The notes below the pieces were generated by a model. The model saw only the letters and a program-made list of their open reading frames with translations. It made no database searches and was not told where the DNA came from. Positions 5,458 to 20,767 of a DNA stretch of 24,000 nucleotides are shown here, piece by piece. Both the position numbers and the translations under genes were made by a program. Every line of letters starts with the position of its first letter. Position 1 is the stretch's first letter. Source of the stretch: Candidatus Limiplasma sp. (GTDB taxonomy: Bacteria; Bacillota; Clostridia; Christensenellales; Aristaeellaceae); the NCBI GenBank assembly GCA_034927815.1, contig JAYFPK010000012.1, positions 20,227 to 44,226 of the forward strand, in the 5' to 3' direction.

Positions 5458-5524
5458 GCGGAGGCGCTTGCTTCGGCAACGGGCTTCGTCATCACGCCAT
5501 CACACACCATTGGGTACAGGCAAA

Positions 5525-5550
5525 GGGGCCTTCCTAGAAATAGGAAGGCC
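5525..5550. repeat. Palindromic hairpin repeat, copy 1 (GGCCTTCCTA-GAAA-TAGGAAGGCC)
   Basis: A perfect 10-bp stem with a GAAA loop. The 26-nt string GGGGCCTTCCTAGAAATAGGAAGGCC is identical to 5660-5685. It is preceded by CAAA, so on the minus strand it reads hairpin+CCCCTTTG. Confidence 0.8.
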
Positions 5551-5659
5551 TCAGACCGTTGATAAAGGGCCTTTTCTGCAAAATGTGCCTCGGGGAATCC
5601 TTTGTTTATAAAGGTTTGAAGAATACAATTTTCGCAGAAACAGCGTTTTTCAGCAATCT

Positions 5660-5687
5660 GGGGCCTTCCTAGAAATAGGAAGGCCCC
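5660..5687. repeat. Palindromic hairpin repeat, copy 2 (12-bp stem, GAAA loop, followed by TTTGTGT)
   Basis: GGGGCCTTCCTA-GAAA-TAGGAAGGCCCC is a perfect 12-bp stem. The short T-rich tail on the plus strand gives it a weak intrinsic-terminator look. Confidence 0.8.
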
Positions 5688-6278
5688 TTTGTGTATGCAA
5701 AAACCATAACAGCCTTGGATTGGGAGCGGGCAACGCAGCGCCGTTGGGAAAGGGTGGACTTGCCCTACCCTCCTTGCAAACCCACGATTCTACACCCATG
5801 CCCTGTCTGCCCCGCCGCGTCATTTTCCCCGCTCTCCCCCAGCGCAGCTTCAAAACCGAAAATCCCCGCAGCCTGGCAAAACCAGCAATGCCCCGCCCTT
5901 TGCTTTTGCGCCAGCCGCCCCGGCCGCTGCGGCATGCGCCGGCCTTTTCAAAAGCACCGTCTTCCCCTCTCCGGCAACGGTTTCTTTGGAGGCTGGGGAC
6001 TGTCCCAAGTCGGCGCAGAGGGGCGCGGGCATCCGCTTGGCCCCTGTTCCTCCTGGGAATGGCCTGCTGTGCGGTCCCATCCCCAAGAGCCCTCTGTTTG
6101 AGCCGTTCCCTCCGGCGCGGATGTTAACGTTTTCTGGCGAAAAATAACCGCTTTCGCAAGCGGGCCGGCTGGCGAAAACCTGAAAAGCTTTTCGGCCCGT
6201 TCCTGATAACGCCTATGCCGCCTGCCCTCCAGCCGCCCCGCCCTCCGTAGTGATCGGCTCGAAAAACCAATTTGTATA

Positions 6279-6307
6279 TTGATTTTTTTGGGGTATTTTG
6301 GTATCCT
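6279..6307 (+). promoter_or_regulatory. Candidate sigma-A promoter of the agr-like operon
   Basis: TTGATT (6279-6284), a 17-nt spacer, then TATCCT (6302-6307) preceded by TGg (extended -10). It sits in the only strongly AT-rich stretch upstream of 6354. A second TGGTATC(AT) motif lies at 6323-6331. Assignment is by eye only. Confidence 0.3.
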
Positions 6308-6353
6308 TACCTTCATTCATAGTGGTATCATGGATAGGGGGAGGAGGGCCAAA

Positions 6354-6926
6354 ATGATAGTAGAAATCATTGTGGTGTGCCTCCTTGCGAAGCTAAAACG
6401 GTTTCAGCTCCACTATCTTTTTCGCACATGGACGTTTTACCCCATTTTGCTGATCCAGTGCGCGCTGGTGGTGTTTCAGGCCTCTCTGTTCTTCCGGCAA
6501 TATGTTTTTGTGCGGTTTATCCCCTATACGGAAATGGCCGTCATCCTCTCCTTCCTTTTTGCCCTGTTTGCGTTCCGGCTATATACGCCGGCCATCATTG
6601 GCTCCGCATCCATCGGGGTGGGAACGCTGCTCAACAAGTTGGTGATTGCCCAAAACGCCGGTACAATGCCCGTATATCCCACCCTTTCCTACCTGACAGG
6701 CTATGTCACCCCTGAGATGGTAGCCTCTTTGGATAGCCTTCATTCCCTTGGCGGCCCGGAGACAAAGCTCAAGTTCCTTTCGGACTATATCGATTATGGG
6801 TATTGTATTTTAAGCCCCGGCGACGTTTTGATTCACCTGTTTGCCTGTATTATGCTATATGCGCTGATTAAGGCGGTGAATGCCCGCTACGGGAACCACT
6901 CCGGTAATCAATATCAGGAGGTATGA
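6354..6926 (+). CDS. Polytopic membrane protein, DUF5317-like
   Basis: ATG at 6354 is preferred over the track start 6279 because a GGAGGAG RBS lies at 6341-6347. The 190-aa product has 4-5 hydrophobic helices. The motifs IAQNAGTMPV and ILSPGDVLIHLF resemble, from memory, the NGGxMPV / SxGDxxx signature of DUF5317. The RBS of the next gene lies inside its 3' end. Confidence 0.75.
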   Translation: MIVEIIVVCLLAKLKRFQLHYLFRTWTFYPILLIQCALVVFQASLFFRQYVFVRFIPYTEMAVILSFLFALFAFRLYTPAIIGSASIGVGTLLNKLVIAQNAGTMPVYPTLSYLTGYVTPEMVASLDSLHSLGGPETKLKFLSDYIDYGYCILSPGDVLIHLFACIMLYALIKAVNARYGNHSGNQYQEV

Positions 6927-6929
6927 AAT

Positions 6930-7451
6930 ATGGGTGTCACGGCGGTTTCCAGCGAGATGTTGCTTGCAAAAGGCGTACCTGAGGCGTTCTTGGTTGCACT
7001 GGGGATTCATATTCTAACGGAAACCAAGGTTGAGTGGAAAAAATACCTGTTGATGAGCTTTCTGTTTATTCTGATTCCTTATTTGCTTCGGCGGCTCCCC
7101 ATCTCTTCCGGCATCAATACCGTGCTTTCTTTATTCGGACTTATCTTTGTGTTCCAGCTCCTGTACCACTCCGGCCTGCAGAAAATCGTCCGGGCGATGA
7201 TATCCCCCATTATCATCCTGATCCTGATTTCGGTTTCCGAAATGCTCAATTTGCTGATACTGGCGATGATCTACGGGTTTGAGGCAGCCAATATGATGTT
7301 CAAAACGCCCAACGGGTGGGCGCAATGCCTCTACACCTGGCCGTCCACGGTTTTTCTTGCGCTGTTGTTATTGGCCGCACACCATGTCATTAAGTCCATG
7401 AGGAAGAGGAAAGCTCAAAATGGAAAAGACTATGAGGAGATTGGCGGGTAA
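6930..7451 (+). CDS. Small polytopic membrane protein (~5 TM), unknown function
   Basis: AGGAGG at 6916-6921 lies 8 nt before the ATG. The 173-aa product is almost entirely hydrophobic helices with a basic C-terminal tail (KSMRKRKAQNGKDYEE). It starts 3 nt after the upstream stop and overlaps the agrB start by 32 nt. I recognise no family. Confidence 0.7.
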   Translation: MGVTAVSSEMLLAKGVPEAFLVALGIHILTETKVEWKKYLLMSFLFILIPYLLRRLPISSGINTVLSLFGLIFVFQLLYHSGLQKIVRAMISPIIILILISVSEMLNLLILAMIYGFEAANMMFKTPNGWAQCLYTWPSTVFLALLLLAAHHVIKSMRKRKAQNGKDYEEIGG

Positions 7452-8067
7452 AATCGCCCTCTCGCTTGGCTACGATTCCGAAAAGGAAGCCGTTATCGCA
7501 TATGGCCTATTCGCAATCACGCAAATCACCGTCACAATTGTGCTGGCTTTGCTTTTTGGCTTCATGGTGGGCGCGCCGGCGGAAGCGATGATCGTGTGCT
7601 TCTCGGTCAGTATCTACCGCAAATACAGCGGCGGCGCCCACGCCCATGACGCCGAGTTTTGCACTGTCATCAGCGTCATCTACTGTACCTTGGCAGCGTG
7701 GCTTTCAAAACAGTTGATTCCCCTTTACCATCCCTTTGCCATGCTTGGGGCCATCATCCTGGTCTATGCCCTTGTTTTTTGGATCACTTACCGGTATGCG
7801 CCGGTTGATTCCCCCAACAAGCCTATCAAGAGCGAGCAAAAAATCAAACGGATGCGCAAGGGCAGTTTTACCATCGTTTCGGCGTATATGGCTGTGCAGC
7901 TGTTTTTCTATTTTGGAAGCAATCAATGGCCGGCATTTCGTTCCTACGGCATCAGCCTTTTGCTGGGCATTAGCTGGCAGGCCTTTACGCTTACACCGCT
8001 AGGTGCCATTCTGCTGGACAAGCTGAATGTATTGCCTAAATACGCAAGAAAGGAGGTCTCCAAATGA
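7420..8067 (+). CDS. agrB: AgrB-family membrane endopeptidase (AIP-precursor processing/cyclisation)
   Basis: 215 aa with about 6 TM helices. YRKYSGGAHAHDAEFC places His and Cys 7 residues apart, as in the catalytic H77/C84 of S. aureus AgrB. RYAPVDSPNKPIK parallels staphylococcal VYAPAATKKKPIP. Its stop overlaps the start of an AgrD-like ORF (ATGA). Confidence 0.88.
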   Translation: MEKTMRRLAGKIALSLGYDSEKEAVIAYGLFAITQITVTIVLALLFGFMVGAPAEAMIVCFSVSIYRKYSGGAHAHDAEFCTVISVIYCTLAAWLSKQLIPLYHPFAMLGAIILVYALVFWITYRYAPVDSPNKPIKSEQKIKRMRKGSFTIVSAYMAVQLFFYFGSNQWPAFRSYGISLLLGISWQAFTLTPLGAILLDKLNVLPKYARKEVSK

Positions 8068-8186
8068 AAAAATTCTACGGTCTGGTTGCCGCTGTCAGTA
8101 CCCTCGTAGCGGCTCTGGTCGCTTCCTCGGCGTGCTTCCTGTTCTTCTATCAGCCCGAGGAGCCCGCTTCTCTCAGAAATGAGTAA
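8064..8186 (+). CDS. agrD: AgrD-type autoinducing peptide precursor (40 aa); predicted thiolactone core CFLFF
   Basis: Not in the supplied ORF track. AGGAGG at 8051-8056 lies 7 nt before the ATG at 8064. The translation is MKKFYGLVAAVSTLVAALVASSACFLFFYQPEEPASLRNE. It has an amphipathic/hydrophobic leader, a single Cys followed by four hydrophobic residues, then a QPEEP..LRNE acidic recognition tail, and it sits directly after agrB. Confidence 0.85.
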   Translation: MKKFYGLVAAVSTLVAALVASSACFLFFYQPEEPASLRNE

Positions 8187-8192
8187 GAAGCA

Positions 8193-8217
8193 ATGGGAGG
8201 CATTCCGTGCCTCCCAT
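8193..8217 (+). terminator. Hairpin after agrD (possible partial terminator/attenuator)
   Basis: ATGGGAGGCA-ttccg-TGCCTCCCAT is a perfect 10-bp stem lying 7 nt after the agrD stop. The tail CTTACGCG is only weakly T-rich. Confidence 0.4.
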
Positions 8218-8260
8218 CTTACGCGAATCCATGTAATTGCAAGGCGTATGGAGGTATGAC

Positions 8261-9928
8261 GTGGATAATGATAACAGCGCGAAAATAAAACAAATACTGA
8301 ATATCATTAAAGTGTCATCTCTGGCCTTTCCTGCAATTGCATTTTTACAGTATTACGCGCAGATCCCCAATCAAAACCTGTCCCTTGAGTCCCTGAAGCA
8401 GCAAATGATTGTTACTTTCGTTTTGCTGGCAATTCTGATGATCTATACGGTATGGATCTTTCTGCAAGCAAGAATTGACAATAAGACGGTTATCAAACGG
8501 TTGATCGACCCGATTATTTCGATGTCCATCGTCCTGCTTTCCGTGATTTTAACCGGCTCTTACCAAAGCAACTATAAGTTTCTGTTTATCTTCGTTATCC
8601 TGTTTACAAGCATTGAATGTGACCGCCGCACCAGCCTGACGGTAGCGCTTTTGTCAGCGCTGATCATTTTAGGCATTGATCTGTTTGCTTCCCCACGCAT
8701 TGAAATCAACGCCCATTTTGAAGACGATATTGTACTCGCCTTTGTGTTTGTGATCATCTCCTGGACAGTCAGCTACTACGATGAGATCCGTAAAAAGCAC
8801 ATCGCCTATTTAAAGGACCTTGCCAACATCGACGGGCTGACCGGGCTTTACAACCACCGGTATTTTTACGACTACCTGTCTGCCGAAATCGCAAGCTGCG
8901 CCAAAAAGGGCCTCCCCCTTTCCCTGCTGTTCATCGATATCGACAACTTCAAATACTATAACGATATGTACGGCCACCAAAAGGGCGACGATGTGCTGCG
9001 CTCCATTGCGCTGATCATGAAGGCCGCTTTCCCCAAGGACACCTTCATCGCGCGCTACGGCGGCGAGGAATTTGCCGCCGTGCTCAGCGGCTACAGCGAA
9101 GACCAAGCCGTTACCGAGGCGGAAAAGCTCCGCCGCGCGGTGCAGGAATACCCCTTTGACAGCCAGGAGGGCCTGCCCGCAGGCAACCTGACCGTCTCCG
9201 TCGGTCTGTCGTCCTACCCGCTCAAGGGCAAAACCGACGCGGAACTGATCAAGGGCGCGGACGACGCCTGCTACCGGGCGAAGTTCCTGTGTAAAAACCG
9301 CGTGGAAGCATACTCCTCCATTCTGGACGAGTTCCATTTCACCCCTGAGGTGATCACGCAGATCAAGACGCTGATCGCCGTGATCAACGCCAAGGACAAG
9401 TACACCTACCGGCATGTGGAGCGCGTGGTATTCTACTGCAACCTTCTGGCGAACCAGCTCATGCTCAGCGAGGAGGAAAGGCGGAACCTGGTGTATTCCG
9501 CTTACCTGCACGATATTGGCAAAATCAACATCTCGGAAGACATTTTGGTCAAGACCGAGCCGCTGACTCCGGAGGAATGGTCCATATTGCAGAACCACCC
9601 GCAATATGCCGTGGACATCATCCGCAACAACGACGCTCTGGATGAAGTGAAGCCCATCATCCTCCAGCATCACGAGCGGTATGACGGAAAGGGGTATCCC
9701 CTGGGGCTGAAAGGCGAAGAAATCCACTATCTGGCGCGGCTGCTGACCGTGGTGGACGCTTTCGACGGCATGACTTCCCTGCGGCCGTACCAGAAAACCA
9801 AAACCTACGCCCAGGCCATCGATGAGCTAACCCGGTGCAGCGGTACGCAGTTTGACCCCGATGCCGTGAAAGCCTTTATCCGCTGCATTGAGGAGCGAAA
9901 CAGCGACCGGGTGCCATGCATTCCGTAA
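8261..9928 (+). CDS. Membrane-bound GGDEF + HD-GYP protein (6-TM sensor module; putative bifunctional c-di-GMP synthase/phosphodiesterase)
   Basis: The frame is open from 8237 (TTG). GTG at 8261 is preferred because GGAGG at 8250-8254 lies 6 nt upstream. There are six hydrophobic helices in the first ~180 aa. The GGDEF domain follows (GLYNHRYF, FIDIDNFKYYND, ARYGGEEFAAVL) with no RxxD I-site upstream. The HD-GYP domain comes next (YLHDIGKI, HHERYDGKGYPLGL, VVDAFDGMTSLRPYQ). Confidence 0.9.
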   Translation: MDNDNSAKIKQILNIIKVSSLAFPAIAFLQYYAQIPNQNLSLESLKQQMIVTFVLLAILMIYTVWIFLQARIDNKTVIKRLIDPIISMSIVLLSVILTGSYQSNYKFLFIFVILFTSIECDRRTSLTVALLSALIILGIDLFASPRIEINAHFEDDIVLAFVFVIISWTVSYYDEIRKKHIAYLKDLANIDGLTGLYNHRYFYDYLSAEIASCAKKGLPLSLLFIDIDNFKYYNDMYGHQKGDDVLRSIALIMKAAFPKDTFIARYGGEEFAAVLSGYSEDQAVTEAEKLRRAVQEYPFDSQEGLPAGNLTVSVGLSSYPLKGKTDAELIKGADDACYRAKFLCKNRVEAYSSILDEFHFTPEVITQIKTLIAVINAKDKYTYRHVERVVFYCNLLANQLMLSEEERRNLVYSAYLHDIGKINISEDILVKTEPLTPEEWSILQNHPQYAVDIIRNNDALDEVKPIILQHHERYDGKGYPLGLKGEEIHYLARLLTVVDAFDGMTSLRPYQKTKTYAQAIDELTRCSGTQFDPDAVKAFIRCIEERNSDRVPCIP

Positions 9929-12159: not shown

Positions 12160-12900
12160 TTATTGCAAGTCAAAGGGTTTCAGGAATTTCCACACCTGGG
12201 CGGCCTTGCCGTCCTCCTCCATGGAAACCTGGGCGTATGCCCAGCCCTGTACCTTTTCAGGGTCAACCCCCGCCGCGATCAGCGGCTCGGGGTTCAGCAC
12301 GAACACGATGTCCTTATCCTGGTTGGAGTTGTCGTAGCCGCTGGTTTTCATATCGTTGGCCCATTCAAACATGTTGCCGCCGCCCAGCTTCACGCCATAG
12401 TGGTCCAAAGAGGTATGGTAGTTGATAAAGTCCCGGTACTTGCCCACAATCTGCTCGTACGCCGCCAGCGCCGTGGGGCTGCCGGTGTAGGTCAGCTTGT
12501 CGTTGCCCAGCTTCGTGCCTACCGTCAGCCTCTGGCTTCCCAGGCCGCCCGTGGCCTCTCCTTCCGAAAAGGCATAAGCGCCGGGCAGCTTCTGCGGGTC
12601 CAACCCCGCGTCAAGGAAGGGCTGCGCGTCCACTTCCAGCATCACGTCGTACACAGGGGATTGGCTGTAATCTCCGCTCCAAATGAAGCGCGCCGAATCG
12701 TCCGGCGCCATGAGCGCCCAGCCCGCGTTCGCTTCATCCGCGGCAACCCTGTCGGGAATGGTTTTCAGCACCTCCTCAAAGGAGGCGATGGACTGCTGAC
12801 CTACCACGTCCAGGGACTTTATCCCCGAGCAGGCGGTGAGTACCGCCCCCAGGGCCAGGGCTGCGGCACCCGCCGCGATCCGTTTAAAGGTATTTTTCAT
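12160..12900 (-). CDS. Lipoprotein of unknown function embedded in the copA-copZ operon
   Basis: The signal peptide has a lipobox (AALALGAVLTAC|SG). The 246-aa product is acidic. An internal two-fold repeat contains P(F/L)(L/I)xAG(L/V)DP(Q/E)K(L/V)xG. It lies 16 nt after copA and 14 nt before copZ. I recognise no family. Confidence 0.75.
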   Translation of the reverse strand: MKNTFKRIAAGAAALALGAVLTACSGIKSLDVVGQQSIASFEEVLKTIPDRVAADEANAGWALMAPDDSARFIWSGDYSQSPVYDVMLEVDAQPFLDAGLDPQKLPGAYAFSEGEATGGLGSQRLTVGTKLGNDKLTYTGSPTALAAYEQIVGKYRDFINYHTSLDHYGVKLGGGNMFEWANDMKTSGYDNSNQDKDIVFVLNPEPLIAAGVDPEKVQGWAYAQVSMEEDGKAAQVWKFLKPFDLQ

Positions 12901-19541: not shown

Positions 19542-20465
19542 TTAATCGCCCCGGTCGCCTCTGACCACAGCCTCCGGGACGCCCTCATAGAACAAAGCCA
19601 GCCATTTCCGTTCGCTTTCCCGATAGTCCGCTTCATCGGCAAAGGGCGTGCGCACCTCATCCATCAAAACCGTTTCCGTACCCGTGGAATCATAGCTGGT
19701 CACCTGGATGCGGATGTTTTCCCAGTTGCTCTGCTCGTCATACAGCACCGACGCCCGCCGGTACAGCATAGGCCGGCCATCCCCGCCGATGCGGTACAGC
19801 TCGCGGATGCCGGTGATGGCGCTGTCATGAATATAATTGCTGATGAACCCCTGCTCCGGGTAAAGCATATAGGAGGACAGGCCGTCCAGCACCGGCTCGT
19901 AGTGATACTGCCCGTCGGCAGGGCTATACAGGAAATGGGTGCCGAACACATTGGACGCTCCTTGTGAGCGCAGCGCCGTCAAATCAGGATAGCCGTCAAA
20001 ATTCAAGTCCTGTATTGTGACCAGGGGCACCAGGCCTTCCCGGTATTCCACGGAGGGAAAGAGCAAATCCTCAAAGACGTGATCCGGGCGGTCCTTGTCC
20101 GTGATGTGGATCCGGTACACCTGGTCGTCTTCCCACTGCGGCACCTTCAGGGAAGTCAAATACACGTCCACCTGAAGATTGGGCATGTTCCCGCTGCCTC
20201 CGCTGACGGAAAAGACAGGGGTTGCTCCTTGGGCGCAGTAAGGGCAAGGCCCTTTCATTTGTTTCCGCGCATCGTCCGGCAAGGGCTGGAGCGGCAGATA
20301 CTTGGCGTGTACCCCGGCGCAGTTTGGATCGATATGGGCGTAGTTTCCGCCCTCCGGATTGTAATACCAACGGGGCGTATGGGGGTCCGGCGCGCTTTGC
20401 CCAAGCGCGGGCCAGCATGCCCAACAGAGCACGCACGCAAGAAAAACAGCTCCAAACCTTCTCAT
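19542..20465 (-). CDS. Secreted protein of unknown function
   Basis: ATG at 20465 has GGAGGA 7 nt upstream. Signal peptide: MRRFGAVFLACVLCWACWPALGQSAP. The N-terminal motif is WYYNPEGGNYAHIDPNCAGV...GPCPYCAQ, and a DLNFDGYPDL Ca-binding-like loop is present. The upstream 77 codons of the track ORF overlap the DUF503 gene and are Gly/Arg junk. Confidence 0.7.
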   Translation of the reverse strand: MRRFGAVFLACVLCWACWPALGQSAPDPHTPRWYYNPEGGNYAHIDPNCAGVHAKYLPLQPLPDDARKQMKGPCPYCAQGATPVFSVSGGSGNMPNLQVDVYLTSLKVPQWEDDQVYRIHITDKDRPDHVFEDLLFPSVEYREGLVPLVTIQDLNFDGYPDLTALRSQGASNVFGTHFLYSPADGQYHYEPVLDGLSSYMLYPEQGFISNYIHDSAITGIRELYRIGGDGRPMLYRRASVLYDEQSNWENIRIQVTSYDSTGTETVLMDEVRTPFADEADYRESERKWLALFYEGVPEAVVRGDRGD

Positions 20466-20488
20466 ATTGCATTCCTCCCCTGACCTTC

Positions 20489-20767
20489 TCACTGAAATCG
20501 CTCCACCTCCATCAACTGCGCCTCGGCGTTTTGCTCCAGATGGCGGATCACGGCATCCAGCATCTCCCGGGCATGATACCCCTTGCCCGAGACCACCGCC
20601 ACGCCGATGGTAAGCATCTCCCACACATCCTGGGTATCCACCTCCGCAATGGCGGCGTTGAATTTGCGCTTTGCTCCGTCGATGAGGCTGCGGCATACCT
20701 GGCGCTTTTCCTTTAACGAGCGGGCATCCGGTATGTGAAACCGCAGTTGCGCAGACAAAACCACCAT
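20489..20767 (-). CDS. DUF503 (YlxP-like) protein
   Basis: 92 aa. MVVLSAQLRFHIPDARSLKEKRQVCRSLIDGAKRKFNAAIAEVDTQDVWEMLTIGVAVVS matches the DUF503 pattern from memory (SLKEKR...FN.s.AEv..qD.w). GGAGG RBS. Confidence 0.8.
   Translation of the reverse strand: MVVLSAQLRFHIPDARSLKEKRQVCRSLIDGAKRKFNAAIAEVDTQDVWEMLTIGVAVVSGKGYHAREMLDAVIRHLEQNAEAQLMEVERFQ

Follow-up and report, generated by a model that had tools for sequence, protein, structure and literature searches.

A 24,000-nucleotide stretch of a Candidatus Limiplasma sp. genome (contig JAYFPK010000012.1; hereafter the window) carries an agr-like locus that includes agrD, a 40-codon open reading frame (ORF) overlapping the end of agrB. We propose that agrD is functional, that AgrB makes a tail-less cyclic peptide from its product, and that the same cassette encodes a receptor linking this peptide to cyclic di-GMP (c-di-GMP); our rough probability for this reading as a whole is 0.6. 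The cassette has the order DUF5317 - TM173 - AgrB - AgrD - 6TM-GGDEF-HD-GYP, conserved across Clostridia, where TM173 is a 173-residue polytopic membrane protein and 6TM stands for six transmembrane (TM) helices. Judged by its sequence, the locus is an agr-like cassette of the Clostridium perfringens type. The canonical agrBDCA type is ruled out because the scanned ORFs of the 24-kb window include no kinase or LytTR gene, and so neither AgrC (an HPK10 kinase) nor AgrA (a LytTR regulator).

The agrD gene and its predicted ring

agrD runs from ATG to TAA at 8064-8186 (+ strand) and specifies a 40-residue precursor, MKKFYGLVAAVSTLVAALVASSACFLFFYQPEEPASLRNE. A Shine-Dalgarno sequence, AGGAGG, is read at 8051-8056 (+), separated by the 7-nt spacer tctccaa from the ATG (8064-8066), and the stop codon of agrB (TGA, 8065-8067) overlaps this start as ATGA. 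Comparable GGAGG-type motifs also stand 5' of agrD in the orthologous loci. The first-pass annotation of this DNA had described the product, the AGGAGG 7 nt upstream and the ATGA overlap exactly; the ORF was absent from the list of ORFs supplied with it solely on account of the size cut-off of that list.

The same annotation assigned the ORF to AgrD and proposed to check this with a family hidden Markov model (HMM) and alignment, and the assignment holds. The product matches NCBIfam TIGR04223 (quorum_AgrD; cyclic lactone autoinducer peptide) over residues 2-39 with 52 bits (E=5.2e-14), well above the cut-off of 19 bits. Its parts are those described at first reading, i.e. a hydrophobic leader (residues 1-23), a single Cys with four further residues (the ring, C24-F28) and a Pro-containing charged tail (Y29-E40, YQPEEPASLRNE), which we take to be the part recognised by AgrB. 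The Pfam AgrD model does not match the ORF; we assume that this model was built on distant (staphylococcal) AgrDs and do not count the miss against membership. A word-indexed search gives 36 close homologues at 75-98% identity, several of which, from Candidatus Limiplasma or Clostridiales metagenome-assembled genomes (MAGs), already carry the NCBI name "cyclic lactone autoinducer peptide", and 1,409 proteins match a profile of diverse AgrD members at E<=0.01. Gene callers do annotate agrD in contigs identical to the window.

Conservation and codon usage speak in the same direction. The reading frame and the Cys, whose loss in orthologous loci had been raised as the sign of a false prediction, are intact in 49 of the 49 orthologous genome loci with a YQPEEP-type tail. 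In the alignment, little or no variation is seen in the leader, Ser-Ala-Cys24, Phe27, Tyr29 and QPEEP-x-SL (Cys24 and the QPEEP motif are invariant in both AgrD alignments), and the hypervariable positions of the ring are 2, 3 and 5. Pairwise comparison of codons across 15 loci gives 512 synonymous vs 119 non-synonymous differences in the tail, 14 vs 0 at Phe27 and 37 vs 205 at ring positions 25, 26 and 28, with Cys24 unchanged throughout. The leader, Cys24, Phe27 and the tail are under purifying selection and ring positions 2, 3 and 5 diversify. This pattern indicates a translated gene, in which a conserved processing scaffold carries a diversifying signal. Because the family HMM, the adjacency to agrB with its ATGA overlap, the relatives and the codon selection all agree, the 40-codon ORF is almost certainly a genuine AgrD precursor gene.

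The register of the ring comes from alignment with C. perfringens AgrD, whose database entry (NCBI) reads VIATTVATSACLWFTHQPEEPKSLRDE (full-length members have 44 residues) and whose published ring is CLWFT (PMC6534674; PMC12312760). On this alignment, the ring of the window is very probably CFLFF, encoded by the codons Cys24-Phe-Leu-Phe-Phe28 at 8133-8147 (+); Y29 stands where C. perfringens has His. The tail and CLWFT ring of C. perfringens, which the first-pass annotation quoted, agree with the entry and with the published ring. Its suggestion that CFLFF forms a separate specificity group fits the 104 distinct rings that we count among 143 AgrD family members. The window agrD belongs to a "SAC-xxFx-YQPEEP" subfamily, which includes C. 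perfringens AgrD, and is one new allele of a large known family already recognised by annotation pipelines.

Two observations on rings fall outside this subfamily. AgrDs of another subfamily, with a tail YQPEVP..., share the exact predicted ring CFLFF (L055:7977-8114 and L056:7965-8126); their loci are without the DUF5317/TM173/sensor cassette, and the shared ring is either convergence or potential cross-talk. For C. botulinum AgrD1, reviews give the signal as ACYW[CVYQP] (PMC12312760 / PMC3673130). Set in the SAC-xxxx-YQP register this AgrD would have the ring CYWCV followed by YQP, so that the published ring may be four residues off; the ring CYWCM is present in our family census.

The cassette and its candidate receptor

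The agrB gene (7420-8067, +) matches Pfam PF04647 with 130 bits against a cut-off of 23, and we take its product to be the membrane cysteine endopeptidase/cyclase that processes AgrD. An SGGAH motif places His74, and Cys81 follows seven residues on, a spacing equal to that of the catalytic dyad H77/C84 of Staphylococcus aureus AgrB. Upstream lie a gene for a DUF5317 membrane protein (6354-6926, +; Pfam PF17248, 76.6 bits; 190 residues), homologous to C. perfringens CPE1563, and the TM173 gene (6930-7451, +), homologous to CPE1562. The DUF5317 ORF is open from TTG 6279, and ATG 6354 is its likely start, as called (190 residues) in the identical loci L005 and L006. TM173 matches no family of Pfam or NCBIfam; its conserved residues comprise invariant Pro-Glu, Arg, Leu-Pro and Gly and a membrane-embedded Glu. 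The idea that it split off from the sensor or from AgrB was rejected, as hhalign comparisons among TM173, DUF5317, sensor and AgrB give probabilities <1%.

A locus scan with one genome per species returned 52 loci. With family HMMs, the order TM173-AgrB-AgrD-sensor is kept in every YQPEEP-type AgrD locus whose contig is long enough. The sensor gene always comes directly after agrD, and the genes flanking the cassette differ from locus to locus. DUF5317 is the first cassette gene in most loci; only L053 and L058 lack it, and in L043 it is relocated. The hosts are Candidatus Limiplasma-like MAGs, Clostridium, C. perfringens, Proteiniclasticum, Zhenhengia, a Peptococcaceae MAG and an Acutalibacteraceae MAG, and truncated contigs of Anaerocolumna (L052) and Haloimpatiens (L058) retain the agrD-sensor part.

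The C. perfringens locus of this set (L061) encodes, in order, DUF5317 (188 residues), a 153-residue protein, AgrB (214), AgrD (44) and a GGDEF+HD_5 protein (563). Its HMM architecture is that of the window, tblastn links the two as well, and by position its genes are CPE1563, CPE1562, CPE1561 (agrB), agrD and CPE1560. In strain 13, CPE1563 through agrD are co-transcribed, as determined by RT-PCR (reverse transcription-PCR), and complementation of an agrB mutant needed a construct with all four genes, including the two upstream ones (PMC2706048). Reviews describe these two upstream genes as of "function unknown" and state that no two-component system flanks agrBD. The perfringens literature examined does not treat the fifth gene as part of the agr system. 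Our literature search found no mention of DUF5317 and nothing that links agrBD to a neighbouring GGDEF/HD-GYP gene, a prior mention in Ohtani 2009 or Wuster & Babu 2008 being possible.

In the window this fifth gene, the homologue of CPE1560, lies at 8261-9928 (+) and encodes 555 residues. Its ORF is open from TTG 8237; the likely start is GTG 8261, after GGAGG at 8250-8254, and gene callers also start there (555 residues) in L005 and L006, whose contigs are identical. The protein matches Pfam GGDEF (140.6 bits) and HD_5 (131.4 bits), and its motifs GGEEF (residue 267), HDIGK (residue 417) and HHERYDGKGYP (residue 470) are intact, as are GGEEF and HHExxDGxGYP in C. perfringens and most relatives. 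No RxxD inhibitory site is present beside GGEEF. The closest solved relatives are WspR, an active cyclase, and PmGH (4mcw), an active HD-GYP protein. In sequence the protein has the hallmarks of a bifunctional GGDEF / HD-GYP c-di-GMP enzyme. Its AlphaFold2 model (mean predicted local distance difference test, pLDDT, 88.4) has six TM helices. These belong to the sensor domain (8261-8830, +; residues 1-190), for which the distribution of charges between loops (positive-inside) predicts an N-in topology.

The sensor TM domain (182 residues) is rare and modular. Among 1.84 billion proteins it has no more than 97 relatives, counted as clusters at 50% identity with E<1e-3. Output domains were scanned in 43 long proteins, i.e. 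the window protein and 42 relatives: 26 of these carry GGDEF (17-18 also HD-GYP), and the other 17 carry HisKA/HATPase_c instead, often with PAS. In L063, L067 and L068 it is this kinase-fused 6TM form that takes the slot after agrD. Thus L063 reads DUF5317-TM173-AgrB-AgrD(...SSACVWSAYQPEEPKCLREE)-[6TM]-PAS-HisKA-HATPase_c, and in L067 AgrD is followed by a sensor-kinase. TM173 goes with the sensor even where the signal genes are missing: in L064-L066 it stands directly 5' of a sensor-kinase (TM173 HMM E=1e-40), with no agrB, agrD or DUF5317 nearby.

These TM173 + 6TM-PAS-histidine kinase pairs (L064:4509-6860, L065:3653-6004 and L066:129-2480) have no adjacent response regulator and could be "orphan receptors" eavesdropping on foreign peptides. 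L068 (1887-10793 in GCA_054814125.1) is a tandem array in which one agrBD is accompanied by four TM173 paralogues and three 6TM-PAS-histidine kinases, in the order TM173a-kinase 1-TM173b-kinase 2-TM173c-TM173d-AgrB-AgrD(...SASACSFAFYQPKEPKSLRKD)-kinase 3. Such an array points to several receptors, which may serve foreign peptides.

If the cassette encodes the receptor, ring and receptor should vary together. We compared the Hamming distance between rings with the distance between protein blocks, controlling for the catalytic-domain distance (partial correlation, Mantel-type); this distance is the only control for phylogeny, and the ring types are few per clade. A family-wide run on 25 loci gives r=0.11 (p=0.07) for the sensor and r=0.26 (p=0.0004) for TM173. 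Because whole-domain identity is too blunt at large distances, we moved to tests within clades. Among 15 close loci the partial r is 0.66 for the sensor, 0.63 for TM173, 0.34 for AgrB and 0.15 for DUF5317. By blocks, all those of sensor and TM173 (0.49-0.61) and the C-terminal third of AgrB (0.55) are associated with the ring; AgrB 1-70 (0.21) and the first GGDEF block (residues 197-280; 0.14) are not, and the second GGDEF block is weakly so (0.34, p=0.013).

The set was then enlarged with 56 metagenome loci to 67 non-redundant loci in six clades, i.e. 316 within-clade pairs, and labels were permuted within clades only. The three blocks of TM173 have partial r values of 0.53, 0.51 and 0.26 (p<=0.003) and those of the sensor TM domain 0.49, 0.33 and 0.36 (p 0.0003). 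AgrB 141-215 (0.35, p 0.0003) and DUF5317 1-95 (0.29, p 0.002) are associated as well, while AgrB 71-140 (0.09) and DUF5317 96-190 (0.05) are not significant. The C-terminus of AgrB, the ring and the sensor make up one contiguous hypervariable block, as agrB-agrD-agrC do in S. aureus. TM173, for its part, covaries with the ring across a stretch of agrB that does not, and this speaks against mere hitch-hiking. Ring-tracking columns of the sensor (44, 51, 138, 139 and 155) fall within TM2, TM5 and TM6, in what are predicted to be the outer halves of these helices.

Because of the synteny, the swap of output domains, the pairing of TM173 with the sensor, the covariation with the ring and the intact GGEEF and HHExxDGxGYP motifs, we lean slightly towards the 6-TM sensor protein and TM173 being the cognate receptor of the peptide, with TM173 proposed as partner or specificity subunit of the sensor. 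Within the membrane, the 6-TM domain of the GGDEF/HD-GYP protein and TM173 would together detect the very hydrophobic peptide, and sensing would shift the balance between synthesis and breakdown of c-di-GMP, with no AgrC/AgrA pair. That the cassette encodes a two-part receptor of its own, through which the cyclic pentapeptide acts directly on c-di-GMP turnover, or on kinase activity in sister lineages, is a more specific proposal, to which we give even odds.

Several points weigh against a receptor encoded in the cassette. The 44-locus family-wide test shows no ring-sensor association (partial r 0.02) and a weak one for TM173; the ring-sensor signal appears only within clades, and shared ancestry or recombination blocks can inflate tests of the Mantel type. 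No solved structural relative of the sensor domain was found, and the single-sequence structure model of TM173 was too poor to be used (pLDDT 62, predicted template-modelling score 0.30). Co-expression of agrD and the sensor gene is not assured either, given a conserved hairpin between them. In the window the terminator scan finds a GC-rich stem-loop at 8192-8218 (+), 5 nt past the agrD stop (-31.4 kcal/mol, z = -3.4). A strong hairpin of varying sequence occupies the same spot in ~30 loci, C. perfringens among them, and in low-GC genomes, that of C. perfringens included, T-runs come after it. It is likely a terminator or attenuator, and it looks as though it would keep the precursor mRNA in excess, an arrangement common for genes of peptide precursors.

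This hairpin and the negative family-wide test for the sensor domain would both suit the main competitor, the view currently held for C. perfringens, in which an unlinked histidine kinase of the VirS type senses the peptide, and the GGDEF/HD-GYP protein and TM173 do something else, e.g. sense the state of the membrane or take part in peptide production or export. Its best support comes from C. perfringens, where VirS binds the peptide and sets the specificity, as established by pull-down, receptor swaps and inhibition by a loop peptide (PMC7492741). This also counts against our proposal, as does the fact that the reviews of 2021 and 2025 mention no c-di-GMP link. We nevertheless regard VirS-type sensing to the exclusion of the cassette as doubtful. 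Against it stand the synteny across orders despite differing flanks, the replacement of the output domain by a kinase at the same position, and the covariation of the ring with sensor and TM173 within clades when AgrB 71-140, in between, has none; and the TM173-sensor pairs without agrBD speak against a purely biosynthetic TM173. The authors of the VirS work (Li & McClane 2020) allow for further receptors, and their peptide pull-down contains an unexplained band of ~75 kDa (PMC7492741); a CPE1560-type protein has ~63-65 kDa, and any link to this band is speculative. VirS and a receptor encoded in the cassette are not mutually exclusive, as the cassette sensor may be an additional receptor. A paper on agr-dependent, VirS-independent regulation of epsilon-toxin is flagged as retracted and was not relied on.

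TM173 and/or DUF5317 could also be maturation or export factors rather than part of a receptor, for instance a leader peptidase, or an exporter analogous to MroQ, a membrane peptidase of S. aureus. The complementation in C. perfringens that required the two upstream genes (PMC2706048) points that way, although this need may just reflect the upstream position of the promoter. The invariant residues of TM173, among them the membrane-embedded Glu, would suit such a role, and the N-terminal half of DUF5317 weakly tracks the ring. But TM173 occurs beside sensor-kinases in loci devoid of agrB, agrD and DUF5317, and is duplicated along with kinases, not with agrBD. A role in maturation or export is thus unlikely for the two taken together; DUF5317 by itself may have such a role.

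The mature signal

agrD has an AGGAGG of its own for translation, which is coupled to that of agrB. From what is known of the family, AgrB (His74/Cys81) would cut off the tail Y29-E40 and link the carbonyl of Phe28 to the thiol of Cys24, giving a five-residue CFLFF thiolactone. The leader would be cleaved right before Cys24, at S-S-A|C, so that the pentapeptide has no tail, like that of C. perfringens. Small residues at -1 and -3 are preferred by type I signal peptidase, and Ser-Ala immediately precedes the Cys in 141 of 141 AgrD members. In C. perfringens the 5-mer counts as the native signal (PMC7492741; PMC12828898), natural material having a similar mass (PMC12828898), and many clostridial peptides have been found without N-terminal extension (PMC8251862). 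Because of this invariant Ser-Ala, the C. perfringens 5-mer and the clostridial precedents, the mature product is probably a tail-less pentapeptide.

A signal that keeps an N-terminal tail (A, SA or SSA) and is a stable thiolactone, as in staphylococci, appears improbable to us. Staphylococcal peptides do bear 2-4 tail residues (PMC8251862), and an 8-mer that has a 3-residue tail also shows activity in one strain of C. perfringens (PMC7492741). Against such a tail stand the invariant site with small residues at -3/-1 right before the Cys, the 5-mer considered native in C. perfringens and the many extension-free clostridial peptides.

The tail-less product raises a further point of chemistry. 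Clostridial thiolactones with a free N-terminal Cys rearrange to homodetic cyclopeptides with a half-life of ~5 min, and in Ruminiclostridium cellulolyticum the rearranged form is the active signal (PMC8251862). For Listeria, the labile thiolactone is reported as the active form in work cited in PMC12828898. This dispute between studies over the active isomer counts against our reading of the signal. Following the published chemistry, the free N-terminal Cys of the window product would bring about rearrangement of the thiolactone, within minutes, to an isobaric head-to-tail cyclopeptide. The first-pass annotation predicted a "CFLFF thiolactone": the ring stands, but the thiolactone is perhaps only the primary product, since tail-less peptides rearrange. 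We thus consider the CFLFF thiolactone as the likely primary product and an isobaric lactam as the species that may persist. For cyclic CFLFF we compute a monoisotopic M of 657.2985 and an [M+H]+ of 658.3058; forms with an A, SA or SSA tail would have m/z 729.343, 816.375 and 903.407.

That the agrD ORF is after all a chance open frame, not expressed, would fit its shortness, the spurious ORFs in which DNA of 60% GC is rich and the missing Pfam AgrD match, but has next to no chance of being right in view of the NCBIfam match (E=5e-14), the strong ribosome-binding site, the start/stop overlap with agrB, the abundance of synonymous change and the presence of the ORF in all orthologous loci.

Surroundings, significance and relation to known systems

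Between leuB and the DUF5317 gene, 5460-6353 comprises ~900 bp without a convincing ORF, with a terminator-like hairpin at 5660-5687, and presumably holds the promoter/regulatory region of the cassette. A promoter scan of the + strand around the cassette gives no sigma-70 consensus site. An Rfam scan of the window finds no RNA family, so no c-di-GMP riboswitch lies nearby. The remaining genes of the window concern leucine biosynthesis, aldehyde dehydrogenase, copper homeostasis, amylase and a sugar symporter. GC content is 46-52% over the cassette (6000-9000) vs 60-64% in the flanks. Together with the unrelated flanks in L001, L004 and L005, this is consistent with a horizontally mobile module; the composition of membrane proteins may contribute to the dip. 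At 7-2646, ahead of leuC, leuD and leuB, stand two successive LeuA-like (HMGL-like + LeuA_dimer) genes; the window edge truncates the first, and the second may encode a citramalate or homocitrate-type synthase. On the - strand, a 246-residue ORF between copZ and copA (12160-12900) has no Pfam/NCBIfam match, and a 384-residue ORF (19542-20696) has just a weak match to an XAC2610-related domain.

Many Clostridia, C. perfringens among them, carry agrBD without AgrC/AgrA, and how they sense the peptide has been debated since 2009. CPE1560-like sensor enzymes and their CPE1562-like partners are specific, conserved and genetically tractable receptor candidates, and the cassette context makes this old question directly testable in C. 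perfringens. If our proposal is true, peptide quorum sensing would be wired to c-di-GMP without a two-component phosphorelay, a new type of output for an agr-like system, and CPE1562 and CPE1560, unassigned or unmentioned in the C. perfringens literature examined, would acquire functions. c-di-GMP typically controls the choice between biofilm and motility. The hypervariable rings would mark many private communication groups in gut and bioreactor Clostridia.

The nearest known system is the agr locus of C. perfringens, with the same gene order and families, an AgrD layout ...SAC-ring-[Y/H]QPEEPxSLRxE, the hairpin after agrD and, as in the window, no adjacent AgrC/AgrA. The two differ in the ring (CFLFF vs CLWFT in C. 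perfringens), in the residue after it (Tyr vs His), in the length of the precursor (40 vs 44 residues) and in the host, which for the window belongs to high-GC uncultured Clostridia whose relatives are labelled Candidatus Limiplasma or Oscillospiraceae.

With agrBDCA of S. aureus the window shares the His/Cys peptidase-cyclase AgrB and the leader-ring-tail layout of an AgrD with a five-residue Cys ring. A further likeness is the hypervariable ring that co-diversifies with the C-terminal part of AgrB and with the downstream membrane sensor, the pattern of the hypervariable block agrB-agrD-agrC in S. aureus. Unlike S. aureus agr, the window has its downstream sensor fused to c-di-GMP enzymes, two extra membrane proteins upstream, no AgrC/AgrA and a product that is probably tail-less. 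The agr loci of C. autoethanogenum have another arrangement, agrD-agrC-agrB.

Rc-AIP1 of R. cellulolyticum (Molloy et al. 2021, PMC8251862) belongs to a different AgrD subfamily and locus type, but the window product is likewise predicted to have a free N-terminal Cys. As for Rc-AIP1, an S-to-N acyl shift would give an isobaric head-to-tail cyclopeptide.

On the sensing side, the 6TM domain of the window weakly matches the PilS-like 6TM domains of Pfam PF25323 (E=0.004, below the Pfam threshold), a family that matches 4 of the 43 long sensor proteins at E<1e-5. PilS senses a hydrophobic peptide stretch of pilin inside the membrane; the sensing of a hydrophobic ligand within the membrane thus has a precedent, although ligand and output differ from those of the window. 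On the output side, the DSF-RpfC/RpfG system of Xanthomonas uses an HD-GYP domain to turn a cell-density signal into an altered c-di-GMP level. There a fatty acid is the signal, and a sensor kinase phosphorylates a separate HD-GYP response regulator; in the window, if our proposal holds, a peptide would act on a single membrane protein bearing both GGDEF and HD-GYP, with no phosphorelay.

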